A stretch of DNA of 64,000 nucleotides from Alphaproteobacteria bacterium (GTDB lineage Bacteria > Pseudomonadota > Alphaproteobacteria > Bin95): positions 1,888,001-1,952,000 of the forward strand of contig OZ219787.1 in the NCBI GenBank assembly GCA_964291285.2, written 5' to 3'. A model generated the notes under the pieces. That model ran no database searches, was not told the DNA's origin, and saw only the letters and a program-made list of their open reading frames with translations. Position 1 is the first letter of the stretch. Every line of letters starts with the position of its first letter. A program made the position numbers and the translations under genes. Shown piece by piece: positions 8,901 to 21,692 of the stretch.

Positions 8901-9392
8901 ATCGCCCTCGCGCGAAGTGCGGTGCAGGAACGTCGCCGCCAGCATGTCGCCGGTCTCGATGCGGCGATCCACCCCGGCCTTTCCGACGCGTGTCGTGGCG
9001 CAGTGCTGGAACACGGTTTCGTCGAGAGCGCAGCGCGCGGCGTCGATGACGGCGCGCTCGATCTTCTCGCGATCCTCGGCCCTGGGCGTGATCGCCCATA
9101 ACGCGGAGATCGACTTGTCGGCGGAGAAGGTCATGTCGAAGCCCGGCGAGCGTTTCTCGGAGCCGGCGTTCTGCACGAGCGAGGTGCCGTCGAGGTCGGG
9201 CGAATGGCCGGCGCAGAGCGCGTAGAACTTCTTCTCCCAGACGATCCCGCCGTTCTTCAGGCCGAAAAGGCCGGCCGGGTTGTGCCACTCGCCCGGACGC
9301 TCCTTGCCGCCGCCCGTGTAGTATCCTTCATGGGCCGCCTGACTCTCGATGTAGTAGGTCGGCACGGCCATCTTCGCGAGCGTCGCTACCAC
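2973..9392 (-). CDS. traA: MOBF (TrwC/TraA-type) conjugative relaxase-helicase with long repetitive C-terminus
   Basis: N-terminal YY...YY motifs, FDMTFSADKSIS, HUH motif HRTSREGDPQLHVH, Walker A GAAGSGKS, VVDEAGML, YAYAAT..AQGLT. Confidence 0.92.
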   Translation of the reverse strand: MVATLAKMAVPTYYIESQAAHEGYYTGGGKERPGEWHNPAGLFGLKNGGIVWEKKFYALCAGHSPDLDGTSLVQNAGSEKRSPGFDMTFSADKSISALWAITPRAEDREKIERAVIDAARCALDETVFQHCATTRVGKAGVDRRIETGDMLAATFLHRTSREGDPQLHVHATIFNAVKTHCDGKYRALHGYPLYSWKKAAGAAFRGHLAHIMQERLGIAMERHGPEGQYSRVREMDPELEQVWSKRRAAIVAAVAEHLGEEALSNPAQMAAATLATRSHKPEGGPTTEEDIERFLEEAAEVVDVEELRDRIHAAGIEELTRERIEEIHAEIIAIPGKLAQMEAIFNVPNIIEKLENALAGAVDREAMARWREVALGNAELVSLQYPEPGIEAQAGMAHKRIFTTGDTLRAEHTLRHVSALSVSDRTHAVEPGKVARLLEELASKGKRFSAEQRKAIDHAAAESGRIALIEGAAGSGKSHVLGPLADLWRAEGRTVRALAVAWSVAVELASDIDAPPSAVHPFLRKVNKGAVDIGPDNVLVVDEAGMLSTRQTLQLVRLSERTGCKLVLVGDTRQQQPIEAGPGMRIVRDRVKGVRIDRIRRQKATPEDFLREVDGLPAGEAMERAAAMTREDRAAARKRYTAMNRERKAAGEKPLRIERPWQLGVSALLRTGAMHQAFTELHKRGRLALAEGKEDALLRLVAHWSAYMAENPEHDAVVMARTRADVRALNALLRARHHAATGSPGHDPARDTAVIRIHRLRDRGKALEDDFEVRVGDRLRIGSTVSRLGLYNRDVVTVTGLEKRETEDGKTQVLITARTGDRRTIRFEPGDIRNWLGEITIDYAYAATCTAAQGLTIDAGFVLLDEGMARETAYPACTRHTDHLQVVADRLPVAIAIAGATPDGEPGREVSDDEVLMTLGRLCGRSQPKEAATDYILAANEQEYLAQGELELGRDPIEPAIPANDALEPGTAGSGPRRPGESPGLSVRRHADRAAVQRIIAASNRQLSQNANRAEAFALAADMEAVEREWSAIPAPAEPAAAPDAAERVRRTLDRHRDVLARVRVFLRSGAHTAGERWPGVSGEGARAFALFRRRMKRRWAGPLDAEARLAREARTRSLAGPLERDWSALRSRTGPDILGFLEDPEHAGLLRRTVAIATDPEIDRDTAHSWRAFLDGHHAALGAALTRAWKQATPLRQNTVERLSPGSVSGYGRLMRQAHAFPAVLDAASGLQGDRRAETALWRRRLQAAPAYRDILTAFTEQRDAEEALMRRREERLPGSTLPTRRLADHMATMNGALALDGFDDGARKKIRQFIRQHRQARRDAGVTRTDAPWPSDEQLENRIATEARLREDWRAIRAAMRGDPLAALEYPRHWQVIASTARHAADPSLDADTARKQAAFLAGHLRQLDTALEEARAAVRQPTAAPGYGWAAFRQYDRLRWRAYTLTGDLRGLPEGFVVPGFSGRKWRDWLGATPDTLEAFGMLVRSIEAEDAMIRDREALLPGSTLPTRRLHEHMENLRAVASFENSAAFLRDDERAGFMERLESWEKAREAAGVTRTDGRWLTDSAAAHRAEAHALAQAWSQFRGALPHRLAALDRPDHGDLVARTAAFIRNTVPARAATVQLRSHTVPARAATVQLRSHIDALHSALDAQWRNLQPDTGSAPWTVARLREYTQLRDRVRAFSDIIRKLPGPLRPDSVDARTWRARLRSAPSVETAAVSVIRTIPAEKQILEERERLLPGSTLPTRRLADHMAALELLAARDEATPEQKAGVLSILERHHAARTAAGVTDTDHEWPPTAAGAVAAESRRLRTAFDRLDEEAGETPLIYHPGTASLLPRIGPLLDTELLSSSDCEYFSMLSRIVESETRVRDSIHLNIERARTHLQDYAAILERHSARSAEQPSAPQPRPGGIRGAARRAREAAQRRIDAMDPLKVEIDRRRRERETQPQSLYRSDPDYRSWDRRAQRLIATLDASLAAETENHRAHVDRRRLDIVDLRSELAAIRSAGLDSLRAPHRIEVPDAGASAIQDQRFDPDRLLPILKSALKPRDERDPEAVAELARWNRAYPKETLTSFRRFLDRAAEFPHEVSTARLAAGLPPGLASALSGLSREVYRREAEVLIRQQTLIQDRGISY
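3990..6040 (-). repeat. Three about 230-240 aa internal repeats in the relaxase C-terminus
   Basis: Motif LPGSTLPTRRL..HM...AGVT.TD..W occurs three times (near 5545, 4865, 4150). Confidence 0.85.
4460..4546. repeat. Exact 42-bp tandem duplication (TVPARAATVQLRSH x2)
   Basis: tgtggctgcgaagctggaccgtcgccgcgcgcgcgggcaccg starts at 4460 and again at 4502. Confidence 0.95.
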
Positions 9393-10642
9393 CGCGGCGG
9401 CTCCCTGGCCGGGTCCTGCGCCGACAGTCCGGAGAGGCGCCTGTGGTCCGGATTGGCGTCCAGGATGTCGCGCGTCGTGAACAGGCGCTTGTGCGCCATG
9501 CCGGCGACGGCGTCCGGGTTGGGGTCGTCGTATTCAAGCGGGAGCAGGTTGATGGTGGAGAGGGCGTATTCCAGCCACTGATCCATCGCAGTGTCGTCGA
9601 AGAGGCCGGCGGCGGCGTTCTCCACACGGGTGACGATATCGGCCGTGTTGAAGACCAGGTCCGCCGCGGCGAGAGTGCGGGGAATGTCCTCGAGCTCCCG
9701 GCGGAGCTTGTCGCGCTCCTGTTCGGTTACGTCATTGAAGGAGGATCGGACGATCCGCGCGTGCAGGGCGTCGGGATCGACGATCCCCGCTGCTTCGGCC
9801 CTGAACCGCGCGATATCGCTTTCCGTGGCCGTTCGCTTGAGGCGCAGGGCAGCGGTCGTGGACGCGCCGGCGCCGGAAGCGGCCGGATCGGGTGTCCTCC
9901 AGGCAGCGTGAACGGCGTTGACATGGGCTTGCAGCCTCGCATTACGCTTGCTCCAGAGTCCCTCGAGACCGCGGTCCATGCGGCGGACGCGGGTGTATTC
10001 GCCATGCGCGCCGTGACGCTCGATCTCCACCCCGAGGCGGCTGCGCAGCCGGCAGGCCAGGCGGTTGCGGAAGGCGGCGCCGATGGCCTTCTTCCAGGAA
10101 TACAGCGGATAGCCGTGAAGGGTACGGAAGCGGCCGTCTGAATGGGTTCTGACAAGATTGAAGACGACGCAGCTGACGTCCAGTTGGGGGTCGAGTTCGC
10201 GGGAAATGTGAAACGGGGCAATCGCGGCGAGGATGTCGCCGGTCTCGACGCGAAGCCCGCTTGCTGCTCTCCCGATGCGTGTGGTGGCGCAGTGGCGGAA
10301 GACGATCGCGGTGAGAGCGATCCTGGCGGCGTCCATGACCGCGCGCTCGATGCGCTTGCGGTCGAAGTCGGGAGAGGTGGCCCAGAGCGCGGAAATCGAC
10401 TTGTCGGGCGAGAGGACGATATCGAAGCCGGGCGTGTGTGTCCCGGATATGGCCCTGCGGGTAAGCGGGCCCGCGTTCTGCGGTGCAAATCCCCTCCATA
10501 AGGCGAGCAAGTCCTTGTCGGGAACCGTCGCCCCGTCCGGGAGATGCAGCAAACCGGCCGGATTGCGCCATGTGGCAGCGTAGGCTCGTTGGCGGTTGGT
10601 ATAGAGGGCCGGGTCGGCCAGCTTGTTGATTCTCGCTACCAC
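9386..10642 (-). CDS. Stand-alone MOBF relaxase-domain paralog with degenerate catalytic motifs
   Basis: Aligns with the first about 410 aa of TraA (SPDKSISALWA, LHGYPLYSWKKA, AGMAHKRLFTT). HVH is replaced by DVS and the YY pairs are lost. Its TAG overlaps the TraA GTG start. Confidence 0.85.
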   Translation of the reverse strand: MVARINKLADPALYTNRQRAYAATWRNPAGLLHLPDGATVPDKDLLALWRGFAPQNAGPLTRRAISGTHTPGFDIVLSPDKSISALWATSPDFDRKRIERAVMDAARIALTAIVFRHCATTRIGRAASGLRVETGDILAAIAPFHISRELDPQLDVSCVVFNLVRTHSDGRFRTLHGYPLYSWKKAIGAAFRNRLACRLRSRLGVEIERHGAHGEYTRVRRMDRGLEGLWSKRNARLQAHVNAVHAAWRTPDPAASGAGASTTAALRLKRTATESDIARFRAEAAGIVDPDALHARIVRSSFNDVTEQERDKLRRELEDIPRTLAAADLVFNTADIVTRVENAAAGLFDDTAMDQWLEYALSTINLLPLEYDDPNPDAVAGMAHKRLFTTRDILDANPDHRRLSGLSAQDPAREPPRW

Positions 10643-10649
10643 CTGAAGA

Positions 10650-10860
10650 GCCTCTGGGGTCCGTGCTCGACTCGCATGGAAAAAGCAGGATGACCCCGCA
10701 AATGAGCGGTGCCAGGTAGAGTCTCCGCTGTGGTCATGCGCCCCACTTCCGCGCGTGATGCCGTCATCTGCCGTGGCGATCCGTAACCCGTTGAAATCAT
10801 TGTGTATTCCGTCGTGCTATTATTTGCACCGCAGGGGCACCGGTGTGCTGACTCCGATCC
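10650..10860. promoter_or_regulatory. Candidate oriT / relaxase promoter region
   Basis: Non-coding and locally AT-rich (ttgaaatcattgtgtatt...gctattattt), directly upstream of the relaxase pair. No nic consensus could be matched; position-based only. Confidence 0.3.
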
Positions 10861-10951
10861 GCGACCTCAACACGGTTCCATGAGGATAGGCCGCGATCCG
10901 GAAGCTGGCAACCGTCGGGGCAGCCGGGGGATCGGAAATCGGCGGGGCGCG

Positions 10952-11355
10952 GAGGCGTAGTCTTCCGGGTTCCTGCCGGAACCGGAGCTTGCGGAGGGCC
11001 CGGCAGGGTTCCGGATAGCGGAGCCGGTCTCGCGGCCGGTACGGGCGCCAGGGGTCATGCGGGGAGGGCAGGAACGCGAAGCGGGCGAGGGATCGCCGCA
11101 TGACCGGGAAAGGGAAACGGCCCGGGTCGGAGGCCGGTACGGAAAGGAAGCCCGACGCCTCAGGGCGCCGGGAGCATGGCCGCGACCGTCCGTCTTCCTC
11201 CTTCCCGGCCCGGGAGCGAAGCGACCTGGCGCTATGCTCCAGGCATCGCCGGCAGGCCTGCGAGGCGCAGTCTTCCGGGTTCCTGGCAGGGCCGGAGCCT
11301 GCGGAGGGCCTGGCAGGGTTCCGGATAGCGGAGCCGGTCTCGCGGCCGCTACGGG
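10952..11355. repeat. 94-bp direct repeat pair (10952-11045 and 11262-11355)
   Basis: gaggcg(t/c)agtcttccgggttcctg...ccggatagcggagccggtctcgcggccg(g/c)tacggg; 8 mismatches counted by eye. Confidence 0.9.
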
Positions 11356-11379
11356 ACGGCGGGAGCGGTACAGGGAAGA

Positions 11380-11406
11380 AGCCCCGGCGCGGGCGGCGCC
11401 GGGGCT
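11380..11406 (-). terminator. Intrinsic terminator
   Basis: agccccggcgc/gcgccggggct hairpin just downstream of the 11414 stop, followed by TCTT on the minus strand. Confidence 0.6.
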
Positions 11407-11413
11407 CCGGGAA

Positions 11414-11671
11414 TCAGAACGGGACCGTGTCCGGGAGCGCATCCTCCGGCTGGCGGGCCGGGGCCGCCTCGGCGAGGTCGAACTCCTCGTCGGCGTCGAC
11501 CACCTCCGGCGTCCAGCTGCGCAGGCGCGCCCGGTGGCCCGCGCGGCGCTCGGCGGCCAGCACGCGCCGCGCGAGCTGCTCGCTCTCGCCGTAGTGGGTG
11601 ACCCGCCAGCGGGTCCCTCCAGTGTACCAGGGCAGCAGGATATCCACGGTCCAGCAAGCGTCGGCGCTCAT
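11414..11671 (-). CDS. Hypothetical 85-aa protein with acidic C-terminus ending DTVPF
   Basis: ATG 11671 preceded by AGGAGAG RBS and the conserved upstream box; followed by a terminator. Confidence 0.7.
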   Translation of the reverse strand: MSADACWTVDILLPWYTGGTRWRVTHYGESEQLARRVLAAERRAGHRARLRSWTPEVVDADEEFDLAEAAPARQPEDALPDTVPF

Positions 11672-11859
11672 CGTCTCTCTCCTGTTCGGGATTTGCCCCG
11701 ATCGGCCCCTTCCCCGCCTTTCGCGCCTGGCGGCCGGCACGGCGCCGGGAGCATGGCCGCTATCGCCCGCCTTTCCCTTCCCGGCCGCCCGCCGCAGGCG
11801 CTCTCCCGGCGCATCCGGCCAGGCCGGGAAGGCGCCAGGCCCCGCACCGGTACGCGGGA

Positions 11860-11889
11860 GATACCCGACGCCGGACGGCGTCGGGTATC
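11860..11889 (-). terminator. Perfect 13-bp hairpin after toprim gene
   Basis: gatacccgacgcc-ggac-ggcgtcgggtatc. Confidence 0.65.
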
Positions 11890-11895
11890 CGTGGC

Positions 11896-12924
11896 TCAAG
11901 CCGGCAATCCCGCGGCATGCAGCCGGCGGCGATATTCCGGCGGGCCGAGCCGGAGGAGCTCGTCATTGGCGTCCTTCGCGCCGGGGACGATGCGCTCCAC
12001 CCGCAGCCCGGTGTCCCGGTGCGCCTTGCGGAGCGCGGCCCAGGCCTCCTCGCCGGCGCGGTCGCGGTCCTGCACCAGCGTGACGCGCTCGATGCCCGGC
12101 GGCAGGGCGACCCGGTGGATGCGCCCGGCGGACACGGCGGCCGCGATGGCGACGTGGCGGCGGCCCTCCGGTCCGAGCGCCCGGCAGACCGCGAGCGCGT
12201 CCTCCACGCCCTCGGTCAGCACCGCATGCCGCGCGCCGGCGGAAGCGGACCACCGCACGGCGCCGGAGAACAGCCGCCCGCTGGTGCGCTTCGGGTCCGC
12301 GATCCGGGCCTTGCCGCCATCCGGGGCGACGAAGATCCGCTGCAGCCCCTCCAGCGTGCCGTCCGGCGCGCGGACGGGCGCCAGCAGGGCCGGCAGCTCC
12401 CGCCTCCGCCCGTCCACCTGCACCCAGGCGTCGGGGCGGAACCGCAGGCCGGCCTCCCGCGCGTCCTCCGCCGACAGCCCGCGCGAGGCCAGATAGCGCC
12501 CGGCCGGGTCGTCGCTGCGGACCGCGCGCGAACGGGCCAGCACCGTCTCCAGGCCGGCGCTGCTCACCGGGCGGCAGGCCGCGGCGGACACCGGCGGCGC
12601 CGGGCGCTCGGCGGCGGGCAGGGCCAGGAAGCGCCGGGCCTCGCGCGCGGCCTCCCCGATCGAGCCCAGGTCGCGGGCCGCGCGGATCAGGTCCAGCGCG
12701 TCGCCGCGGTCGCGGCCGTTCGCCCAGTCCTTCCAGCGCCCGCGCAGGCGGCCCTCCAGGTTGACGCGCAGCGAACTGCCCGGCTCGCCCGCGACGCTGC
12801 CCACCTGCCAGAACGGACCCTCGCGCCGCCCGTTCGGCAGATAGCAGGCGCAGACCGCCTCGATCTCCCCCGCCAGCCGCGCCGCCAGCTCCTGCAGCGA
12901 AATCCCTCCATGCATCGCAGCCAT
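11896..12924 (-). CDS. Plasmid-type toprim (primase-like) domain protein, copy 1
   Basis: VC..YLPNGRREG..WQVG...GEPGSSLRV; YLASRGL; LPALLAPV; VLTEGVEDAL; VQDRD; KDANDEL. Start at ATG 12924 after [11 protein letters not shown]. Confidence 0.9.
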   Translation of the reverse strand: MAAMHGGISLQELAARLAGEIEAVCACYLPNGRREGPFWQVGSVAGEPGSSLRVNLEGRLRGRWKDWANGRDRGDALDLIRAARDLGSIGEAAREARRFLALPAAERPAPPVSAAACRPVSSAGLETVLARSRAVRSDDPAGRYLASRGLSAEDAREAGLRFRPDAWVQVDGRRRELPALLAPVRAPDGTLEGLQRIFVAPDGGKARIADPKRTSGRLFSGAVRWSASAGARHAVLTEGVEDALAVCRALGPEGRRHVAIAAAVSAGRIHRVALPPGIERVTLVQDRDRAGEEAWAALRKAHRDTGLRVERIVPGAKDANDELLRLGPPEYRRRLHAAGLPA

Positions 12925-13143
12925 GTCCGATCCTCCTTCCGGGCCGGGGTTCCGGAGCCGCGCCTGGCGGGCGTCAGCCCCGATATCGCCCCGACCAACC
13001 CCTTCCCGGCCTTTCGTGCCTCGCGGCCGGCACGGCGCCGGGAGCATGGCCGCGAGCGCCCGCCTCCCTGTCCCGGCCCGGCTCCACGCCTCCGGCTGCC
13101 TCCGCCCCCGATCGGGCGCGCGCGGCGGAGGGCAGGTACAGAA

Positions 13144-13179
13144 CGATCGCCCCGACGCCGGGGGGCATCGGGGCGATCG
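13144..13179 (-). terminator. Hairpin terminator
   Basis: cgatcgccccga...tcggggcgatcg immediately after the 13182 stop. Confidence 0.6.
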
Positions 13180-13181
13180 GA

Positions 13182-13358
13182 TCAGCCGGCGTCTCCGGCG
13201 TGGTCGGGCTCCCAGGGGAACAGTGTCGCCTGGTCTCCCCAGCGGGGCAGGCTGTCCTCCAGGACGCTGTCGCGGAGGGGGAGCGCATCGAGGCCGAGCT
13301 CGGCAACGGCGTGGCGGGCGTCGAGCGCGTCGAAGGCGGGGTCCAGCAGGGCGGTCAT
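13182..13358 (-). CDS. Hypothetical 58-aa acidic protein (MTALLDPAFDALDARH...WEPDHAGDAG)
   Basis: Manual translation; GAGGA RBS, upstream box at 13419, hairpin after the stop. Not in the ORF track. Confidence 0.65.
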   Translation of the reverse strand: MTALLDPAFDALDARHAVAELGLDALPLRDSVLEDSLPRWGDQATLFPWEPDHAGDAG

Positions 13359-13418
13359 GTCCTAAATCCTCTCGGTTCGCGGTCGCGGACCGGGATGGCC
13401 GCGATTCCGCCCGGACAA

Positions 13419-14140
13419 CCCCTTCCCCGCCTTTCCTGCCTTGCGGCCGGCACGGCGCCGGGCCATGGGGCAACGGCCGGCCGCCGCGGAACCGTTCCGG
13501 GCCGCCCGGCAGCGGGGACGGCCCGGCACGGGGCAACGAAAAACGCCCCGGGCCGGAGCCTCGGGGCGCTGAACGGGGGCAAGGAAAAACCCCGGCGCGG
13601 AGGCCGGGGTCGGGGGGACGGCTATTCGGCGGCGGCCGGCGGCGGGCCGCTGTCGGGGGCGTTCCGCCTCAGGAAGTAGCGCTCGAGCAGGTCGAGCTTG
13701 GCCGCCATGGCGCTGACGGCGACCTCCAGGGCGCGCAGGCGCTGATCGAAGCCGTCCATGCGCTGGTCAAGCCGGTCCATGCGCTGGTCAAGCCGGTCCA
13801 TGCGCTGGTCAAGCCGGTCGATGCGCTTGCCGAGGTCCATGCGGAGCCAGGCGATGAGCGCGATGGTGATCGCGGGCGTCGCCCATGGGGCGAGTTCGGC
13901 TGCGGTCATGGTGCCGCTCCTTTCGGTGGGGGATTGTAGCACGGCGGGACGCCGGAGCGAGGCCCGCAATACTGCCCGGACAAGCCCTTCCCCGCCTTTC
14001 CTGCCTCGCGGCCGGCACGGCGCCGGGACCGTGGCAACGGCCGGCCGCCGCGGAACCGTTCCGGGCCGCCGGCAGCGGGGACGGCCGGCACGGGGCAACG
14101 AGAAACGCCCCGGGCCGGAGCCTCGGGGCGCTGAACGGGG
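13419..14140. repeat. About 160-bp near-identical direct repeats (13419-13580 and 13984-14140)
   Basis: cccttccccgcctttcctgcc...gcggaaccgttccgggccgcc...aaacgccccgggccggagcctcggggcgctgaacggggg occurs twice. The first about 55 bp also recur at 11706 and 12999. Confidence 0.9.
13622..13909 (-). CDS. Small membrane-anchored coiled-coil protein with heptad repeats (RMDRLDQ)n
   Basis: N-terminal hydrophobic helix; 21-bp tandem repeat gtccatgcgctggtcaagccg; AAAGGAG RBS; TGCTACAAT extended -10-like element upstream; terminator 13589-13610. Confidence 0.8.
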   Translation of the reverse strand: MTAAELAPWATPAITIALIAWLRMDLGKRIDRLDQRMDRLDQRMDRLDQRMDGFDQRLRALEVAVSAMAAKLDLLERYFLRRNAPDSGPPPAAAE

Positions 14141-14150
14141 GAACGAAGAA

Positions 14151-14176
14151 ACCCCGGAACCCGAAGGTTCCGGGGT
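14151..14176 (-). terminator. Intrinsic terminator
   Basis: accccggaacc-cgaa-ggttccggggt followed by TTCTT on the minus strand. Confidence 0.7.
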
Positions 14177-14187
14177 GGGTGACAGCA

Positions 14188-15399
14188 TCACCAGCTGGCG
14201 AAGCGGGCCATGGGGGCGGCGTCGGTGACGATCTCGACATCCTCGAGCGTGAGCTTTGCATAGGCGAGTGCGGCCGCGAGTTCCTGCAAGGTGTCCCAGG
14301 TGCCGTGATCGGTACCGGTCGCGATCTCGATCACGGTGTACCGGGACGGCAGATCGGGCATGCCGCGATACTCACGGGAGCGCTGCCTGTCCCGGCACGG
14401 CCCGCAGTCCAGCGTGCCGCGTTCCGGGGGCCGTTCGCCGCAGCGGACGCAGAGGCCGGCGGCCCTTCTGCGGGCGGACCGGCGGCGCCAGTTGCGAAGC
14501 GAGGTCAGCCGGGTGTGCTGCCGGCAGCTTTCGCAGGTGTCGAATTCGGGAAGCGCCGGGGTATCGCCGCAACGCGTGCAGAGCCCCCGGGCGCGGCGCG
14601 CGGCTGCCATGCGGTGGTATCCGGCGAGGCTTTGCTTGCGGCGCCGGTCCCGGCAAGGGGCGCAATAGGGGCTGTCCGGAAACGGGGGCCGTTCGCCGCA
14701 GCGGACGCAGAGGCCGGCTGCCCTTCTGCGGGCCGACCGGCGGCGCCAGTTGCGAAGCGAGGTCAGCCGGTCGTGCTGACGACAGCTTTCGCAGGTGTCG
14801 AATTCGGGAAGCGCCGGGGTATTGCCGCATCTCTTGCAGAGCCCGGCCGTGGCGCGCTGTTCGGCGAGCTTGCGGGGGCGGTCTTCGGAGCAGTCCGGGC
14901 ACAGCCGGATCCCCGCTTGCAGCACCGGGATGCCGCAGCCCTGGCAGAAGCGGCGTTTCTCCCGGGGGACGCGGGTCTTGCGGTCGTATTTCTTCCGGTT
15001 GTCGAGACACGGCTGGCACGCGGAACGATCCGGAGCCGGCGGCCGGTCGCCGCATCGCGGACACAGCCCCTTCGACGCGCGTTCGGCGCGGCGGGCGCGG
15101 AGCATGTCCCGCGTCCGGCGGGCGTGGATGTCGCCGCAGGGCTTGCAGCGGCGCCGCCCGGGCGCCGGGGGCGTCATGCCGCAATCGAGGCACAGGCGCA
15201 GCAGGGAGCGGCGAAGCTTCCGGCGCCGGTTGCCCTCACGGGCTGCGTCGAGGCAGGGGCGGCAGTTCACGCGGCCGGCCTCGGGCGGACGGTCGCCGCA
15301 ATGGGAACACAGGCCCGCCGCCCGGCGCGCGTTGCGCGTCCGGTCGCTGCGGCGGACAGGGTTCCCGGTGTCGGCGGGTGGATGCGGTTTGCTGGTCAT
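14188..15399 (-). CDS. Arg-rich protein with eight tandem CxxC-x11-CxxC (zinc-finger-like) repeats
   Basis: Eight GLCxxCG...CxxC-type units; 258-bp internal duplication (14431/14689); non-repetitive C-terminal domain. Confidence 0.8.
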   Translation of the reverse strand: MTSKPHPPADTGNPVRRSDRTRNARRAAGLCSHCGDRPPEAGRVNCRPCLDAAREGNRRRKLRRSLLRLCLDCGMTPPAPGRRRCKPCGDIHARRTRDMLRARRAERASKGLCPRCGDRPPAPDRSACQPCLDNRKKYDRKTRVPREKRRFCQGCGIPVLQAGIRLCPDCSEDRPRKLAEQRATAGLCKRCGNTPALPEFDTCESCRQHDRLTSLRNWRRRSARRRAAGLCVRCGERPPFPDSPYCAPCRDRRRKQSLAGYHRMAAARRARGLCTRCGDTPALPEFDTCESCRQHTRLTSLRNWRRRSARRRAAGLCVRCGERPPERGTLDCGPCRDRQRSREYRGMPDLPSRYTVIEIATGTDHGTWDTLQELAAALAYAKLTLEDVEIVTDAAPMARFASW

Positions 15400-15615
15400 C
15401 GCGGCTCCCGGCGTGTCGGTAGCGGGCGCGGCCCGGGCCGAACGGGGGGAAGCCGATCGGACGGCCGGGCGCAGGACTCACGCTGCAAACCCCTTCCCGA
15501 CCTTGGGGCTGCAAGGAGCGCCGCCGCGGGAGCGGTGGCCAGCGGAGAGCAATGGCGCCGGCGAAGACAGACGGGTTCCCCGCCCCGGGACGGCATGCGA
15601 GGGGAAAACGGAAAA

Positions 15616-15641
15616 GCCCCGGAACCCGCAGGCTCCGGGGC
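15616..15641 (-). terminator. Intrinsic terminator after ssb
   Basis: gccccggaacc-cgca-ggctccggggc followed by TTTT on the minus strand. Confidence 0.7.
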
Positions 15642-15654
15642 GGAGGGCGCGCCA

Positions 15655-16068
15655 TCAGGCGGAGAAGTCCTCGTAGGCTTCCGGGGGCGGCGCCGGCGGC
15701 CGGTTGCCGCCGCCGTCCGGCTTCCTGTCGAGGAAGTTGATGCAGCCGCGCGGGCCGACGACGATCTCGGTGGCGAACCGGTCGCTGTCCTCGCCGTCCT
15801 TGCGCCAGCTCCGGGTGCGCAGCATCCCGGTGATGTGCGCCAGGCGGCCCTTGGCGGCGTGCTTGCGCAGCATCTTCACCAGGCCGTCCTGGTAGACGGC
15901 GATCCGGTGCCACTCGGTCCGCTCGACATACTCGCCGCTCTGGCGGTCCTTGTAGACCGTGTTGGTGGCGAGGGAGAAATTGGCGACGTCGCCGCCGCCG
16001 GGCAGGCTGCGGAACTCGGGGTCGCCGCCCAGGTTGCCGATCAGGTCGACGCGATTGAGGCCGTTCAT
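15655..16068 (-). CDS. ssb: Single-stranded DNA-binding protein
   Basis: MNGLNRVDLIGNLGGDPE...VANFSLAT...ERTEWHRI...LRTRSW...RFATEIVV; GGAG RBS before ATG 16068. Confidence 0.93.
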   Translation of the reverse strand: MNGLNRVDLIGNLGGDPEFRSLPGGGDVANFSLATNTVYKDRQSGEYVERTEWHRIAVYQDGLVKMLRKHAAKGRLAHITGMLRTRSWRKDGEDSDRFATEIVVGPRGCINFLDRKPDGGGNRPPAPPPEAYEDFSA

Positions 16069-16179
16069 GGCGTTTGCTCCCTGCAGGAGGTTGATTGCGA
16101 GCTGTTGCAACTCACCGCGAAAAGCCCCTTCCCGACCTTTGCGGCGTCGATGCCGCCGAAGGCCGGGAAGGAGGAGCAG

Positions 16180-16389
16180 GCACAGTCGCAGGAGGGAGCG
16201 GCGCCGCCTCCGGCGCCGGTCTTTTTCGTTGTGGATGTCCAGACAGGGACGGCAGGACGTGCGGCCCTCTTCGGGCGCGCGGTTGCCGCAAGTGCCGCAG
16301 AGGCCGGCAGCCAGGCGGGCATTGCGCTTGCGGGGGGCGAGGCCCGGCCGACTGGCGCAATCGTCCGGCGCGCGGGCGGTGCAGGTCAT
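16180..16389 (-). pseudogene. Truncated paralog of the Cys4-repeat protein (first about 1.3 repeats)
   Basis: RNARLAAGLCGTCGNRAPEEGRTSCRPC...RRSLLRLCL matches the N-terminus of 14188-15399. Similarity then stops and the frame reads through the upstream box into ssb. Confidence 0.7.
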
Positions 16390-16470
16390 GGCAATACCCC
16401 GTGGAACGGAACGATGGAAGGGGAGCGGGCCGCGCGGCGCCCCCGGAGGAGCGCCGCCCGAAGGACCGGC

Positions 16471-16782
16471 TCAGGACCGCTTGCGCCGGGCCTCGGCGAA
16501 GAGGCCGGTCGCCAGGTCGCCCCAGTACTGGATGCCGGAGCCGGCGGTCTTCTCGCCCTTGCAGATCAGGATCTCGTTGCGCGCCGGACGCAGCGCGCGC
16601 ACGGTCGCCAGCGACAGGGTGAGCGGGTGGCCCTTGCCGCCCGGCAGCCGGCGGATCTCGCCGTCGATCGTCGTGCGGTAGCGCTCGACCACATAGTGCC
16701 TGTCCTGCAGGCCGCGGCCGAAGACGTGCGTGAGGAAGGTGTTCGCATCGGGGCGAAGGACGGACGCATTGGCAGCGCTCAT
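16471..16782 (-). CDS. Hypothetical 103-aa protein
   Basis: AGGAGA RBS, upstream box at 16856, normal composition. Confidence 0.7.
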   Translation of the reverse strand: MSAANASVLRPDANTFLTHVFGRGLQDRHYVVERYRTTIDGEIRRLPGGKGHPLTLSLATVRALRPARNEILICKGEKTAGSGIQYWGDLATGLFAEARRKRS

Positions 16783-17036
16783 GTGCGATTTCTCCTGTTC
16801 GGGAAACGGGCGCGGGAGCCGGTCGGACGGCCGCCCGCGGGAATCGCACCGAAAACCCCTTCCCGACCTTTCGGACGGCAGGCCGGCAACGCCGCCCGCC
16901 GGGAAACGGCAGCCGGTCGCACAGGGGAGGCCGCAACGGCCCGGAACGCCGGGGGCGGATTGCGGGAGATGGCAGCCGGGATGCCGGCGGAAAGCCCGAT
17001 GGCGGATCGATGCCGCGGGCAGGCCACCATGAAAAA

Positions 17037-17064
17037 CCCCTCCCCGGCCTGTCGCCGGGGAGGG
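17037..17064 (-). terminator. Intrinsic terminator
   Basis: cccctccccggc-ctgtc-gccggggagggg followed by TTTTT on the minus strand. Confidence 0.75.
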
Positions 17065-17091
17065 GCGGGAACGGCGCCAGCAGAGACCCGG

Positions 17092-17601
17092 CTACTGCGC
17101 CGGAGCGGACTCCGGGGCGGCAGGCGCCGGTTGCGGCGCCCCGGGGAAACGGGCGCGCACGAAACCGAGAAGTTCGCGATGGTTGGCGCGGTTTTCGGCG
17201 ACGCCGGCGGCCAGACGCTCCATGGCGGCCGCCTGTCGCGCCTCCGCCGCCTCGCGCTTCGCCTCGCCCGCCGCAAGGTCCGCCTTCACCCCGTCAATCC
17301 GGGCAGACAGGCGTTTCTCGGTTTCCGTCAGGTCCGCCTTCACCTCGTCGATCCGGTCGGTCAGGCGCTTTTCCACCCGGTCGATCCGGGCGCTGAGGCC
17401 GGTCTCGACCCCACCGATCTGAACGGTGAGACGCCGTTCGACCCCGTCGATGCGGATGTCGAACCAGGCCAGCATGCCGACCAGAAAGGCCAGGAAGACG
17501 CCCAGCACGGTGGCGGAGGGCAGGATCGCCTTCCAGCTGCCGTCGCCAACGACGAAAATGCCGCGCTGCGGGGCCGGGGGGGTGGTATCGGGAGAGGTCA
17601 T
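17092..17601 (-). CDS. Membrane-anchored coiled-coil protein (11-residue-type repeats)
   Basis: TM segment VLGVFLAFLVGMLAWF followed by RID.VE.RL repeats; GGAG RBS; box at 17684. Confidence 0.8.
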   Translation of the reverse strand: MTSPDTTPPAPQRGIFVVGDGSWKAILPSATVLGVFLAFLVGMLAWFDIRIDGVERRLTVQIGGVETGLSARIDRVEKRLTDRIDEVKADLTETEKRLSARIDGVKADLAAGEAKREAAEARQAAAMERLAAGVAENRANHRELLGFVRARFPGAPQPAPAAPESAPAQ

Positions 17602-17773
17602 GGCCTCGTCTCCTGTCTGTCGGGAGTATGGGATCGGAACGCGCCGAAGGCAAGCCGCGCGCGCCCCGGCGCACCCGGAAAAACCCCTTCCCGACCTTCC
17701 GGCGCCGGACCGGGAACCGACGCGCCGGCGGGGAGGCTCCGGACTTCGCGGCCGCGGCGCTGCCGCCCGCCTG

Positions 17774-18790
17774 TCAGTCGAACAGCCCGCTGGCCGCGAG
17801 CCAGGCGCGGAACCGGGCGGGCCCGAGCGCCAGCAGCTCGTCATTGGCGTCCTTCGCGCGGGGGACGATCCGGTCGAGCAGCATGGCGGAACCGGCATGC
17901 TCCCGGCAGAGCGCGACCCAGGCGCTCTCGCCCGCCGGGTCGCGGTCCTGGACGAGGGTCGCGCGCCGGACGCCCGCGGGCAGGCCGACGCGGTGGACGC
18001 GCCCGGCGGAGAGCGCGGCGGCAACGGCGATATCCCGGCGCCCGCCCGCGCCGAGCGCCCCCGCCATGGCGAGCGCGTCCTCGACGCCCTCGGTCAGCAC
18101 CAGGCGGCGCGCGTCGTCCGCCGGCCACCAGACGGCGCCCGTAGATAGGCGCCCGCTGGTGCGCTTCGGCCCCTCGATCGGGGCCTTGCGCCCCTCGCCG
18201 GTCAGGAATATTCGCTGCAGGCCCTCCAGCGTGCCGTCAAGGGCGCGGACCGGCGCGAGCAGGGCCGGCAGCTCGCGCTTCCCGCCGTCCACCTGCACCC
18301 AGACATCGGGGCGGAACCGGAGGCCTGCGGCATGGGCGGCCTCCGGGGCCAGGCCGCGGGAGGCCAGATAGCGCCCGGCCGGATCGTCGGGCCGGACCGG
18401 CGCCGCGCCCTCGAGAACCCGTTCGAGTCCCCTCTGCCTCTCCGGCGGCGCGCCGTCCTGCCGGCGGGGGCGCTCATACTCCGGCAGGGCGAGGAAGCGG
18501 CGCGCCTCGTCGGCCGCCTCGCCGATCGTGGCGAGGCTGCGGACGGCGCGGATCAGGTCCAGCGGGCTGCCCCGGTCCTTCGGGCTCGCCCAGTCCCTCC
18601 AGTAGCCGCGCCAGCGTCCGGCGAGGTTCACCCGCAGCGAGGCGCCCTCCTCGCCGGCCGTGCTGCCCACCTGCCAGAAGTTGCCGTTGCGCCTGCCGTT
18701 CGGAAGGTAGTGGCGGCAGACCGCCTCGATATCGGCCGCGAGCAGGGCGGACAGTTCCTTCAGGCTGTGGGTTGTCGGATCGGAGGGCAA
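17774..18790 (-). CDS. Plasmid-type toprim (primase-like) domain protein, copy 2
   Basis: Close paralog of 11896-12924 with the same motifs; TTG start after GGGGAGG. Confidence 0.9.
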   Translation of the reverse strand: MPSDPTTHSLKELSALLAADIEAVCRHYLPNGRRNGNFWQVGSTAGEEGASLRVNLAGRWRGYWRDWASPKDRGSPLDLIRAVRSLATIGEAADEARRFLALPEYERPRRQDGAPPERQRGLERVLEGAAPVRPDDPAGRYLASRGLAPEAAHAAGLRFRPDVWVQVDGGKRELPALLAPVRALDGTLEGLQRIFLTGEGRKAPIEGPKRTSGRLSTGAVWWPADDARRLVLTEGVEDALAMAGALGAGGRRDIAVAAALSAGRVHRVGLPAGVRRATLVQDRDPAGESAWVALCREHAGSAMLLDRIVPRAKDANDELLALGPARFRAWLAASGLFD

Positions 18791-18854
18791 GGCGCGGCCT
18801 CCCCTTTCCCCGGCCGTCCCGGCGCTGTCGCCGGGACGGCCTTGCGCGCGGCGC

Positions 18855-19217
18855 TCAGAACGGACGGATCCTGCAGAGTTCCGGATCGCGGCGCCCGCGC
18901 TCGTAGTTGAGCACCGCCCAGGCCGCGATCTCGAGCGCGGCCAACAGCGGGATTTCCATGCGCCCGGCCTGCTCCTTCGCGAAATGGAACGCCGCCTCGA
19001 GCGCGGTCTCGTCGATGGCGAGGTTGAAGCCGGACTCCCGCCCGAGCCTGGCGGTCAACTCGGAGAGCTTCTGGAGGTCACAGGTCCGCGGGCGAGGCTC
19101 GAAAGCCGGGCCCGGATCGGGCAGCGGCTCGTAGTCGTACTCGTGGAAGTCCTCGTCCGGATCCTCCCAGGCGTGCCAGTCCCGGCAGTAGCCCTCGAAG
19201 TCGATGACGTTGGACAT
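18855..19217 (-). CDS. Hypothetical 120-aa protein with acidic N-terminus
   Basis: ATG 19217 after GGAGG RBS; MSNVIDFEGYCRDWHAWEDPDEDFHEYDYE... Confidence 0.7.
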   Translation of the reverse strand: MSNVIDFEGYCRDWHAWEDPDEDFHEYDYEPLPDPGPAFEPRPRTCDLQKLSELTARLGRESGFNLAIDETALEAAFHFAKEQAGRMEIPLLAALEIAAWAVLNYERGRRDPELCRIRPF

Positions 19218-19296
19218 GCGCGTGTTCCTCCTGCGAAGTTGAGACGCCGGCCGGTCGGGGCCGGCACAGGGGCCGGGCTTTCCTTGTCTGCGGCGT

Positions 19297-20880
19297 TCAT
19301 GCGCCCTCGTCTGCGGCATGGCGCGAGATCAGCTCGAGGATCGCCGCAATGTCGGGAACCGTCTCCACCTCGACGCGTCCGCGGCCCTTTGACGGGCGGA
19401 CCTCGATCCGGGCGACCAGGTCCCGGATGGCGAGCAGGGCCTGCTCGCGCCGCCCGGCCCGCGCGCCGCCCGCGATGGCGCGCCGGAGCCCGGCGACCCG
19501 GTCGCGCATGAACTTCTCCACGCTGAAGCCCGCGGGCGGCGGCGGTCCCGGCAGCCGCTCCAGTTCGGCGAGCGCCTCGTTGCGCGCGCGCTCGAGGGCC
19601 AGAAGGCGCTCGCCGATGCCCGTCGAGGGGATGCCGCTCTCGATCGCGGCAACCAGGCGGGAGATCCCGGCGCCGGCGGCCCCGGCCCTCTCCCGGAGTT
19701 CCTCGCGCCGGACCGCGGTCCCGCGTTCGGCGGCGGCGAACAGGCCGCGCCAGTCGCGCTCGCGCGACAGCATCCAGGCGAAGAGCCGCCGCACGCCAAG
19801 GTCTTCCAGCATGTCCAGCCGGATCCCGCGGTTGTTGGTGCAGCTGTCCGGGTCGCGCCGGCGGGCGAGGCAACGGTAGTAGCCCATCCCGGCGATCGTC
19901 ATGCGCTCGCCGCAAACGCCGCAGCGGACCCGCGCCGTCAGCGGATAGGCCGCCTTGCGGTAGCGGGTCACCACGGTGTGGTGGCGGTTCCTGCGGCGCC
20001 CGACCTCGTCCTGGACGGCCTGCCAGGCCGTGTCGTCCACGATCCGCAGTTCGGGGGCTTCCACGACGGTCCAGTCCTCGCGGGGGACGGCAACGAAATG
20101 GCGCCGCCCGGTGCCCGGGTGACGCCGGGAGCGGGTGCGCCCGTAGACAAGCCGCCCGCAGTAGATGTCGTTGCGCAGCACGCCGCTTCCTTCCCGGCCG
20201 CGCACGGCGCCAGCGGTCCAGGGCTTGCCGCCGGGCCCGGCCACGCCTTCCCGGTTGAGCAGCACGGCAATCTGCTGCGGGCTCATGCCGTCGAGATAGA
20301 GCCGGTAGATGCGCCGGACCGTCCCGGCCTCGTCGGGGTCGATCGTGCGCTGGCCCCGGACGGGCTTGCCGCTCTCGGAGATGTAGTTGGCTATCCTGTA
20401 GCCGTATATGCAGGAGCCGATCATTCGCAGGTCGTGGAGGGCTTCGATCTGCCCCCGGCGCGTCTTGGCGCCGATATTGTCGATGACCATCTCGCTCACA
20501 ACCCCCTTGATGTGCGCATGGAGGGAGTCGACCCGACCGTCCTCCAGGCTGTACAGATTGATCCCCAGAAACCGCAGTTCGCGGTAGAGCCAAGCCATGT
20601 CGGCGGTGCTCCTGGCGAGCCGGTCCAGGCCCTCGACGCAGACGCCGTCGAACCGGCGCGCCCGGGCGTCGTCGAGCAGACGGCGAAGCCCCGGGCGCAG
20701 CTGCATGGCCGCGCCGGTGAGTTCCGGATCGGTGTATTCGCCCGCGATCACGCCGCCAAGTGCGGCGACGCGGTCGCGGCACAGGCGCAACTGGCCCGCG
20801 ATCGAGGTCATCTCCTGCAGGGGCGAGGAGTAGCGCGCATAGATCGCGAAGCGCGCGATGGCGCCGGGCGGTCCGTTCAT
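19297..20880 (-). CDS. Large serine recombinase (resolvase + recombinase + Zn-ribbon domains)
   Basis: AIYARYSS catalytic Ser motif, LDRLAR, YGY, LRNDIYCG, PELRIVDD..W..VQ, CGVCG...YYRC. Start placed at ATG 20880. Confidence 0.92.
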   Translation of the reverse strand: MNGPPGAIARFAIYARYSSPLQEMTSIAGQLRLCRDRVAALGGVIAGEYTDPELTGAAMQLRPGLRRLLDDARARRFDGVCVEGLDRLARSTADMAWLYRELRFLGINLYSLEDGRVDSLHAHIKGVVSEMVIDNIGAKTRRGQIEALHDLRMIGSCIYGYRIANYISESGKPVRGQRTIDPDEAGTVRRIYRLYLDGMSPQQIAVLLNREGVAGPGGKPWTAGAVRGREGSGVLRNDIYCGRLVYGRTRSRRHPGTGRRHFVAVPREDWTVVEAPELRIVDDTAWQAVQDEVGRRRNRHHTVVTRYRKAAYPLTARVRCGVCGERMTIAGMGYYRCLARRRDPDSCTNNRGIRLDMLEDLGVRRLFAWMLSRERDWRGLFAAAERGTAVRREELRERAGAAGAGISRLVAAIESGIPSTGIGERLLALERARNEALAELERLPGPPPPAGFSVEKFMRDRVAGLRRAIAGGARAGRREQALLAIRDLVARIEVRPSKGRGRVEVETVPDIAAILELISRHAADEGA

Positions 20881-20984
20881 GGCCGGTCCTTCGGGTATCG
20901 GATGACCGCACACTCTGGCAACGGGCGCCCCGCCGCGGCAACCGGGACGGCTTCCGCTCCCGGCAGACAACCGGCCGCTCGCCG

Positions 20985-21692
20985 TCATCGCCGCGCCCGG
21001 CGCCATCCGGCGGCCCGGGCGTCCGCCTCGCTGCAGAACCAGCGCTCGCCCTTCGAGGTGTTTATGCGGGTCCGGTCGTAATGCTCGGCCCCGGGCACAT
21101 GGTAGATGCGCCCGTGCCGCGAGATGTTGCCCTTGATGAGGCAGGAGGAACCCGCCTGCGGGGGAGGGGTGGCCCCGTGCCGCCGGTGTATCTCCGCCCG
21201 GCGGTTCCGGTCCTGCCTGCGCCAGCGCCAGGGCGCGGTGAAGTCGCCGGACCACAGGCCGAGCCGCCCGGCGCGGGCCGCGTCCTCGTCCGGGACATAC
21301 CGCATCGACCAGCGCCGGTATGCCAGCGCCAGGCCCTGGCGCACGAGGTCCTGCTGCACGTCCCGCCCGGCCGCGAAGCAGGCCGCGACCGCGCGCCCGT
21401 AGCGGTCGCGGTCCCGGACCTCGCAGCGGACCGGGGTCCGCCCGACGAGCCTGCGCATCGCCCGCGTCGCCGCCCGCCCGCAGGCCCATCGGCGCCCGCC
21501 GCGCGAGCAGGTCTGGCGGGCCTCCGGCGCGTCGATCCCGTGAAGGCGCACACGCCGGCCCTGCACGGCAAGCGTGTCGCCGTCCACGACCCGGGCCTTG
21601 CCGGTGAGGGTTTCGGCTTCAGCCGGCAGGGCGAAGGCAAGCAGCGCGGCTGCCGCGAGAACGGAGGCGAGGCGTCGGAAAAGGCATGGCAT
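20985..21692 (-). CDS. Secreted thermonuclease (SNase) family protein with ExoI-like C-terminal domain
   Basis: Signal peptide; VVDGDTL...VRLHGIDAPE; DRYGR; C-terminal CLIKGNIS..GRIYHVPG...GERWFCSE..ARAAGWR. Confidence 0.9.
   Translation of the reverse strand: MPCLFRRLASVLAAAALLAFALPAEAETLTGKARVVDGDTLAVQGRRVRLHGIDAPEARQTCSRGGRRWACGRAATRAMRRLVGRTPVRCEVRDRDRYGRAVAACFAAGRDVQQDLVRQGLALAYRRWSMRYVPDEDAARAGRLGLWSGDFTAPWRWRRQDRNRRAEIHRRHGATPPPQAGSSCLIKGNISRHGRIYHVPGAEHYDRTRINTSKGERWFCSEADARAAGWRRARR

Follow-up and report, generated by a model that had tools for sequence, protein, structure and literature searches.

The window analysed here, the whole 64,000-nt stretch from position 1,888,001 to 1,952,000 of contig OZ219787.1 of an Alphaproteobacteria bacterium (lineage Bin95), has a G+C content of 69% and carries an integrated element of ~24 kb. 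Within this element lies an array of small genes, most of which are preceded by one and the same short sequence, here called the box (RAAGGYSGGGAAGGGG). All genes from 28275 down to 2973 lie on the minus strand. In the direction of transcription, they encode a replication protein with a DnaA_N domain, ParA, ParB, two NikA-like ribbon-helix-helix proteins, a DUF5131 protein and an SNase nuclease, followed by a large serine recombinase, the 120-residue protein F6, primase-like protein 1, the proteins of the boxed modules and, after a gap of 770 nt, two TrwC proteins. As a first-pass annotation had stated, every gene of the array is on the minus strand and runs toward the relaxase (TrwC) genes. 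The boxed modules code for two membrane-associated coiled-coil proteins (cc1 and cc2), a protein of repeated four-cysteine units (Cys4), SSB, a second primase-like protein and three small proteins named F4, F7 and F8.

Eight copies of the box are present in the window, all on the minus strand, five of them exact and three with one mismatch, where none is expected by chance. The exact pattern AAAGGYSGGGAAGGGG matches the minus strand at boxes 2, 3, 6, 7 and 8 (numbering as in Table 1), against 0.00 matches expected from 100 shuffles, and boxes 1, 4 and 5 deviate from it at one position each. When up to two mismatches are allowed, 11 sites are found against 0.29 expected, namely the eight boxes and three others: 17037(-) is the 3' arm of a terminator, 16158(+) is the inverted partner of box 3, and 7931(+) falls within the relaxase gene. 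The eight minus-strand boxes previously reported before eight start codons are thus all present, at a distance of 34-90 nt, and each of these start codons is preceded by a ribosome-binding site. Likewise, the four boxes reported to lie in longer repeats (boxes 5 to 8) are embedded in repeats of 69-93 nt, two of the four sharing 73-nt and 38-nt repeats farther upstream.

The box is specific to the element. In the five contigs of the genome (6.13 Mb), the 14-base core of the box has 28 matches, every one of them within the ~24-kb element, which is present in four copies on three contigs. A control with the pattern reversed gives none. The box is therefore not equally frequent in front of chromosomal genes, a possibility raised when it was first noted. 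Within the element, boxes are confined to the array; the remaining ~16 kb has none. The element itself is present three and a half times, at 97-99.9% identity. One of its ends abuts an insertion sequence (29021-30494) that occurs in many copies, and the other lies within the gene of the 2139-residue TrwC-helicase, beyond which the copies on C2 and C5 are only ~73% identical at the protein level.

Among 37 family-level genomes, the same set that the order-level search yielded, the box occurs in 11, always as same-strand clusters of 3-12. It is found in nine of 16 other species of the same genus, in none of ten genomes of a second genus and in one of ten of a third, with two matches. No DNA match to the array was found among PLSDB plasmids. 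A collection-wide scan with AAGGTSGGGAAGGGG matched at least 120 stretches, and among the 80 matches listed 79 were single and one was double, in unrelated taxa, so that the scan is uninformative at that size. The genome of the window also holds a diverged element family with three boxes of the GGGAAAGGG variant before Cys4, F4 and SSB, in four copies and a fifth with a degenerate box; here the order is TrwC, Cys4, F4, SSB and then a NikA-like gene on the opposite strand. In three genomes, single arrays contain both GGGAAGGGG and GGGAAAGGG, which rules out an element-specific co-variation of the box variant with a factor.

To describe the anatomy of the modules, 105 box sites from 14 arrays and the genome's own copies were collected and reduced to 96 unique contexts and 37 module types. 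The conserved site spans ~32 nt and consists of the RAAGGYSGGGAAGGGG box, a T-rich stretch, the motif TCSGGGY and an AT patch. TCSGGGY stands at +3/+4 in 26 of the 37 types, and the AT patch (G-Y-R-A-W-T-C) follows 8-10 nt behind the box. All boxes lie between genes and on the gene strand, with a spacing of 0.4-1.7 kb and a uniform orientation. Within a gene family they keep a constant distance to the start codon; between families this distance varies over 33-93 nt. At least 14 families are headed in this way, comprising the two coiled-coil membrane proteins, Cys4, F4, SSB, F8, primase-like protein 2, F7, F9, F13, a beta-clamp homologue and several singletons, in agreement with the earlier statement that the box heads many different genes. 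Two further features of the module heads were noted. GANTC, the site of CcrM methylation, lies in the AT patch of six of the 37 types, against ~1.8% expected (for example at 16833-16837 and 13392-13396 of the window, 8-12 nt behind the boxes); some heads may thus be sensitive to hemimethylation after transfer, but control by CcrM/GcrA was rejected as a general explanation, the site being enriched and not defining. Four G-runs, which had brought a G-quadruplex to mind, are found in some modules only.

Table 1. Coordinates of the array, its boxes and its surroundings in the window, with the copies of the element
Feature	Position	Strand	Remarks
Element copies	window 6289-30494; same genome C2:455880-480094, C5:7904-34071, C2:1-14149		
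Large serine recombinase	19297..21489	-	directly upstream of the array
F6, 120-aa gene	18855..19217	-	without box; no family match
Primase-like gene 1	17774..18790	-	DUF7146 + Toprim_3; PHROG 510 'DNA primase', E 1e-30; without box
Box 1 (GAAGGTCGGGAAGGGG)	17684..17699	-	heads cc1 (start 17601)
cc1	17092..17601	-	169-aa membrane-anchored coiled-coil protein
Intrinsic terminator after cc1	17036..17066	-	3' arm is the box-like ACAGGCCGGGGAGGGG
Box 2	16856..16871	-	heads F4 (start 16782)
F4	16471..16782	-	103-aa protein; unnamed family, widespread in Alphaproteobacteria
Cys4 N-terminus remnant	16141..16389	-	83 codons; frame continues through box 3 into SSB
Box 3 + inverted partner	16125..16173	-	box 16125-16140, partner 16158-16173; 15-bp hairpin, then CTTTTC; heads SSB (start 16068)
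SSB	15655..16068	-	PF00436
Terminator after SSB	15616..15641	-	
Box 4 (CAAGGTCGGGAAGGGG)	15490..15505	-	heads Cys4-repeat gene (start 15399)
Cys4-repeat protein	14188..15399	-	403 aa; tandem CxxC..CxxC zinc-ribbon-like units, Arg-rich linkers; internal 207-nt duplication
Terminator after Cys4	14151..14176	-	
Box 5 (AAAGGCGGGGAAGGGC)	13984..13999	-	heads cc2 (start 13909)
cc2	13622..13909	-	95-aa membrane/coiled-coil protein; three 21-nt tandem repeats
Terminator after cc2	13588..13611	-	
Box 6	13419..13434	-	heads F8 (start 13358)
F8	13182..13358	-	58-aa acidic protein; no family
Box 7	12999..13014	-	heads primase-like gene 2 (start 12924)
Primase-like gene 2	11896..12924	-	66% identical to gene 1
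Box 8	11706..11721	-	heads F7 (start 11671)
F7	11414..11671	-	85-aa protein; no family
oriT-like inverted repeat (GCACACC..GGTGC)	10826..10848	-	184 nt upstream of first TrwC gene, in the 770-nt gap
TrwC/MobF relaxase-domain protein	9386..10642	-	418 aa
TrwC relaxase-helicase	2973..9392	-	2139 aa

The recognisable cargo of the array is replicative and not anti-defence: two primase-like proteins, SSB and, in relatives, the beta-clamp homologue. Domain matches bear out the earlier assignment of two toprim paralogues (DUF7146 with Toprim_3) and an SSB. The PHROG match of the primase-like paralogues spans nearly their whole length, and their similarity to DnaG, from which we infer a primase activity, is weak. 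The boxed clamp module occurs in two related genomes (L060:8340-8951, L069:93-1040) and contains the central domain of the DNA polymerase III beta subunit (PF02767, E 3e-17). The Cys4 protein has ~7 CxxC..CxxC units, and its internal duplication (14380-14586 vs 14638-14844, 86% identity) is recent; it belongs to no Pfam family, and its PHROG match to a 'DksA-like zinc finger' is weak. The tandem repeats of cc2 (13736-13819) encode heptads of the RIDRLDQRMD type, and a related periodicity of 33-54 nt is seen in cc1 at 17271-17406. The two consecutive TrwC-domain genes, first the relaxase-only protein and then the relaxase-helicase, are 46% identical, and the pair is kept in related arrays.

The arrays encode two primase paralogues, SSB and, in relatives, a clamp homologue, and the box could be a recognition site of the element's primase-like proteins, so that the array would offer repeated priming sites for discontinuous second-strand synthesis. 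The uniform orientation and regular spacing of the boxes would fit such a role, as would the length of the motif, which is too long for a sigma-factor element alone. Against it, the boxes keep to a distance from the start codon that is specific to the gene family, lie only before genes and end with the array; moreover, the primase activity itself is deduced from the weak DnaG similarity. We regard this explanation as very unlikely.

The modules vary among genomes. Seven full-length arrays share a core order of recombinase, F6, primase 1, cc1, Cys4, F4, variable modules, SSB, cc2, F8, primase 2, F7 and TrwC. Related arrays vary in extra modules, namely F9/F12, the clamp homologue, F13 and an IS66 insertion. 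In the window, Cys4 follows SSB, whereas it precedes F4 in seven relatives. The suggestion that the modules duplicate and shuffle by means of their repeats holds to the extent that content and order do vary, but the box does not appear to be the point of crossover. In an alignment of nine arrays, the hairpin arm and ~60 nt upstream of the box are conserved together with the SSB gene, while what lies farther upstream is of at least five different kinds. The junctions between modules are thus not at the box, and the hairpin belongs to the head of the downstream module, as its insulator.

These junctions bear on the reading of the array as an integron-like cassette system, in which the box would be a recombination site served by the adjoining serine recombinase. 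The neighbouring recombinase gene, the variable content and order of the modules and the Cys4 remnant fused before the SSB box all lend this idea some appeal. Against it stand the homology of the SSB modules, which runs on past the box, a box that is not palindromic and has no dyad core, and a core order that is conserved across the seven full-length arrays. In addition, the diverged family has boxes, and no serine-recombinase match was found in the five stretches of it examined. Large serine recombinases usually integrate whole elements. With neither a palindrome nor a junction at the box, a recombination site is unlikely on these grounds, and the cassette system proposed in the first-pass annotation finds no support; we consider it the least probable of the explanations discussed here. 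Integron cassettes do resemble the array in being rows of small, variable genes on one strand with a repeated structured site and a recombinase nearby. They differ in that their IntI is a tyrosine recombinase that acts on attC-type sites at the cassette boundaries, while the enzyme here is a serine recombinase, and in that the repeat of the present array heads each gene together with its own terminator and leader, with the junctions elsewhere.

Terminators separate many of the modules. A consensus scan yielded 15 terminator-like sites against 3.3 expected, 12 of the 15 on the minus (gene) strand. Canonical terminators stand behind cc1, SSB, Cys4 and cc2; the hairpins behind primase 2, F8 and F7 lack a strong T-run. 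Of the 'at least seven' terminators reported earlier, the hairpins are therefore present, but only four or five qualify as canonical. A further hairpin involves the box itself. An upstream arm pairs with the box over at least eight pairs in 23 of the 37 module types and over at least ten pairs in 13, and a T-rich tail (at least four T in the next 8 nt) accompanies 10 of these 23 types, against one of the remaining 14, which have no such arm. A good stem of 12 positions, with G.T and A.C scored alike, is present in 15 of the 37 types. The 180 stem positions of these 15 types, which are related by descent, comprise 159 Watson-Crick pairs, 16 G.T, one A.C and four other mismatches when read on the sense strand. 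A G.T pair of the sense strand is a C.A mismatch on the complementary strand, so that the structure suits terminators in RNA and not the + strand, which would be the transferred template. The arms follow the variants of the box, CCCCACC with GGTGGGG and CCCGACC with GGTCGGG. The criteria of an intrinsic terminator, that is a GC-rich hairpin and a T-run on the sense strand, apply to a subset of the module types only, and the box sequence is kept in the 22 types without a partner arm. A search of Rfam 15 returned only two sub-threshold matches at chance level in 10000-20000 and no match for the leaders that precede F4 in other genomes.

From this pairing arises the main rival to a promoter function, namely that the box acts in the transcript, as an arm of a terminator or attenuator or as the target of an antiterminator or processing factor, within longer transcripts. 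The pairing of the box in 15 types, the T-rich tails that go with the arm, the excess of G.T over A.C on the sense strand as expected for RNA and the covariation of the arms with the box are all consistent with it. The same holds for the alignment of the box with the leader of F4 homologues described below, whose predicted pairs are rich in G.U. On the other hand, terminator stems normally drift, whereas the types without an arm keep the box letter for letter. Four modules of the window have separate canonical terminators upstream of the box, which leaves a start signal still to be supplied, and the conserved 5' AAAGG and the 3' TCSGGGY and AT patch lie outside the stem. An RNA-level signal is thus unlikely in our judgement, if still to be taken seriously.

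Since the modules are insulated by terminators, each gene needs a start signal of its own, and the occurrence of the same site before primases, SSB, the clamp homologue and the orphan genes would place them in one regulon. Terminators between the units, the lack of ordinary promoters and a strictly conserved, oriented site of ~32 nt, which is all that the modules share from terminator to ribosome-binding site and is absent elsewhere in the genome, make an element-specific promoter or operator the simplest reading. On this sequence evidence we put at about even the chance that the box is the core of such a promoter/operator, heading insulated one-gene modules that form an establishment regulon, with a dedicated factor, in a conjugative or mobilisable element of the MOBF type. 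Each gene would then stand in a unit of its own, which begins with an insulator and continues with the control site and a leader that is particular to the gene family and holds a ribosome-binding site; in ~40% of module types, a terminator hairpin with the box as its 3' arm would serve as the insulator. A single factor would read the site by means other than the usual recognition of -35 and -10 elements by sigma-70. This factor is presumably one of the element's own products; candidates are the Cys4 protein, F4 and the NikA-like ribbon-helix-helix proteins. Genes of the NikA-like kind are found in the element and beside four of the five diverged arrays, and none of them is headed by a box. With respect to the AT patch, the core of the box occupies the place of a -35 element, which may point to a promoter of the activator type or the alternative-sigma type.

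Several observations weigh against the promoter/operator reading. The consensus scan found no sigma-70 consensus promoter and no recognisable -35/-10 pair inside the array, and by eye the AT patch does not fit TAnnnT. The cc1 and cc2 modules carry sigma-70-like hexamers 40-50 nt 3' of the box (CTTGCC-17-CATACT; TGCTACAAT), below the threshold of the scan; given these downstream hexamers, the box cannot be the -35 element there, and in these two modules it would act as an upstream operator. The boxed proteins show no known DNA-binding domain in Pfam, NCBIfam or PHROGs, and no regulator was identified by these searches. As the box is a terminator arm in 15 of the 37 types, termination could be its primary role. 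In the diverged element family, the three boxed genes come immediately after the relaxase gene, an arrangement that is hard to reconcile with a simple leading region. Lastly, common descent links the 96 sites and the 37 types, so that their counts exaggerate the independent support.

The promoter searches gave one sigma-70-type match, at 10911-10883 before the relaxase gene and thus outside the array. Spacings of the sigma-54, sigma-28, sigma-32, Caulobacter and extracytoplasmic function (ECF) types, compared by eye with consensus sequences, were rejected, none being convincing. GGGAAG-N16-(A/G)T(T/C) resembles an ECF geometry, and no sigma gene was seen in the element. An identical segment of 38 nt (13469-13506 and 14033-14070), present in two module heads only, contains GGAAC-N18-CGTT, which we take to resemble general-stress promoters of the EcfG type.

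Between the array and the relaxase genes lies an inverted repeat whose arms covary in three of four aligned related elements (CACCG/CGGTG, CACCTG/CAGGTG and CACCAA/TTGGTG) and which is a plausible candidate for an oriT hairpin. Two direct repeats of 106 nt (10940-11045 and 11250-11355) adjoin it. As claimed before, transcription of the array is thus directed at an oriT-like hairpin and a MOBF/TrwC relaxase; in all nine related arrays with available downstream flank, TrwC comes next on the same strand. The better conserved side of the hairpin is the one that would imply a nick on the + strand, in which case the array would be the leading region, with the + strand as template. We apply the term 'leading region' on the basis of the usual MOBF geometry. 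Should the element follow the usual course of MOBF transfer, the array would enter the recipient first, with the transferred strand as template, and the regulon would serve establishment through second-strand synthesis and perhaps evasion of defence.

Such a geometry also invites the explanation favoured by the first-pass annotation, that the box is a signal of the Frpo/ssi kind for promotion or priming on single-stranded DNA, where the incoming strand folds and the host RNA polymerase starts on it. Gene orientation is as expected if the + strand is transferred, SSB and primases are the typical company of such signals, and the intergenic regions are GC-rich and fold strongly. To examine this, the eight intergenic regions were folded with DNA parameters on both strands, each with 25 mononucleotide shuffles, so that the z-scores are rough. 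They do not differ notably between the strands (examples are -2.35 against -4.09 and 0.24 against 0.44), and no fold of the eight regions on either strand pairs the box and the AT patch with a partner that would rebuild a promoter. The proposed folding check for reconstituted -35 and -10 elements has thus been run, and none was reconstituted. The recurrent hairpin spans the box alone and is lacking in 22 of the 37 types, -35, -10 and UP hexamers are absent from the array, and the wobble pairs, being those of the sense strand, would be C.A mismatches on the template (+) strand. Taken together, the absent hexamers, the folds and the asymmetry of the wobbles do not support an Frpo/ssi mechanism, which we rate as quite improbable.

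The F4 family offers a view on how the box may have arisen. It has 131 homologues, none of them functionally named (the three named entries read 'hypothetical protein') and none with a Pfam domain. A tblastn search of 72,556 PLSDB plasmids gave no F4 match, while five of 250 other sampled alphaproteobacterial genomes have 2-11 matches each. An ESM Atlas search for the function of F4 yielded no usable match, and AlphaFold models of 14 homologues, with a mean pLDDT of 54.7, are too poor for a fold search. In the genome of the window, the trio of F4, Cys4 and SSB recurs at no fewer than 17 further loci at 36-38% identity (e.g. C1:147215-149533, C2:375855-378173 and C4:232806-235102); together with a total of 39 SSB-like loci, this indicates that the genome carries a very large number of related integrative elements. 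Outside the genus, F4 has a conserved upstream leader of its own of ~95 nt (loci L199-L227), with a GGGCGGCGG...CCGCCG hairpin that is rich in predicted G.U pairs and is not in Rfam. The box of the window aligns with the TGGCCGKGAGCGGGG part of this F4-specific leader from other families, and a box shared by several genes may therefore have arisen by the spreading of the F4 leader to other genes. A multi-gene box in those other families was considered and rejected, as the motif GAGYYTGGCCGKGAG occurs once per F4 copy only.

The promoter/operator reading has parallels in known systems. The source cited for the CUP/ArdK regulon is reportedly the work of Delver and Belogurov of 1997. In IncN plasmids (pKM101/R46), the CUP repeats are a conserved sequence before several separate leading-region operons next to a MOBF relaxase, which form a single ArdK regulon of establishment genes (PMC6289460). 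The likeness to CUP-type regulons drawn earlier is apt, as here too the same conserved sequence stands before several units beside an oriT-like site and a relaxase; the window has eight boxes and related arrays have 3-12 each, before no fewer than 14 gene families in all. It differs in its unrelated sequence, its high-GC alphaproteobacterial host, a box that doubles as a terminator arm and a cargo of primases, SSB, a clamp homologue and orphans in place of ardA and ardB; domain searches found no ArdK-like regulator.

In Bacillus plasmids of the pLS20 family, the repeated upstream sequences EGeRS1 and EGeRS2 define an establishment regulon, and in the EGeRS2 clade (p576) a ribbon-helix-helix repressor gives transient expression after transfer (PMC8708921). 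Here as well, a regulon would be defined by a repeated upstream sequence, and the element has ribbon-helix-helix (NikA-like) genes; yet EGeRS1 measures 400-600 bp and has many inverted repeats, against ~32 nt here, and sequences and hosts are unrelated. Frpo-type promoters on single-stranded DNA precede leading-region islands, and in F and ColIb-P9 the Frpo/ssi sequences stand before ssb and further genes of the leading region, in the orientation in which the transferred strand serves as template (PMC11541004). These are long hairpins that rebuild sigma-70 -35 and -10 elements, whereas the present array has neither the hexamers nor the fold, and its wobble pairs show the opposite strand asymmetry. 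Purely by analogy, the arrangement of a block that is not of the sigma-70 type at -35 before a weak, -10-like AT patch, which may need an element-encoded factor, recalls the middle promoters of phage T4. There, a MotA box replaces the -35 element; no homologue of MotA or AsiA was seen in the present element.

A repeated upstream sequence that defines an establishment regulon of several operons is hence a known principle, and the present case would stand apart in its sequence and host group, in being an integrated MOBF element with a replication cargo, and in its fusion with a terminator arm and its regulator. In searches of the general literature on leading regions, Frpo and CUP, nothing comparable was found for high-GC Alphaproteobacteria or integrated MOBF elements; as neither the motif nor the host group nor integrated elements were targeted, this is no claim of absence. 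Going further, the ~32-nt box might be the docking site of a dedicated element factor, such as a primase paralogue, a ribbon-helix-helix or a zinc-ribbon protein, that couples second-strand priming with a burst of transcription from all modules upon entry into a new cell. It would then be a sigma-70-independent 'establishment punctuation', with a terminator-insulator fused to the start site of each module, which spread from the leader of an ancient gene, F4, to the other genes in alphaproteobacterial integrative elements. We put this forward as a bold conjecture that is probably wrong in this full form.

Repeated regulatory sequences are how establishment genes were recognised in plasmids of the IncN and pLS20 types. 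For the elements described here, the box is convenient for searching: an exact 14-15-mer gives no background in the genome. Joining a terminator arm to a start-site box would be a compact design for insulated, individually controlled modules, and the lack of sigma-70 hexamers points to a dedicated factor. The box thereby delimits a set of candidate co-controlled families, mostly unnamed, which would be natural candidates for establishment or anti-defence functions.

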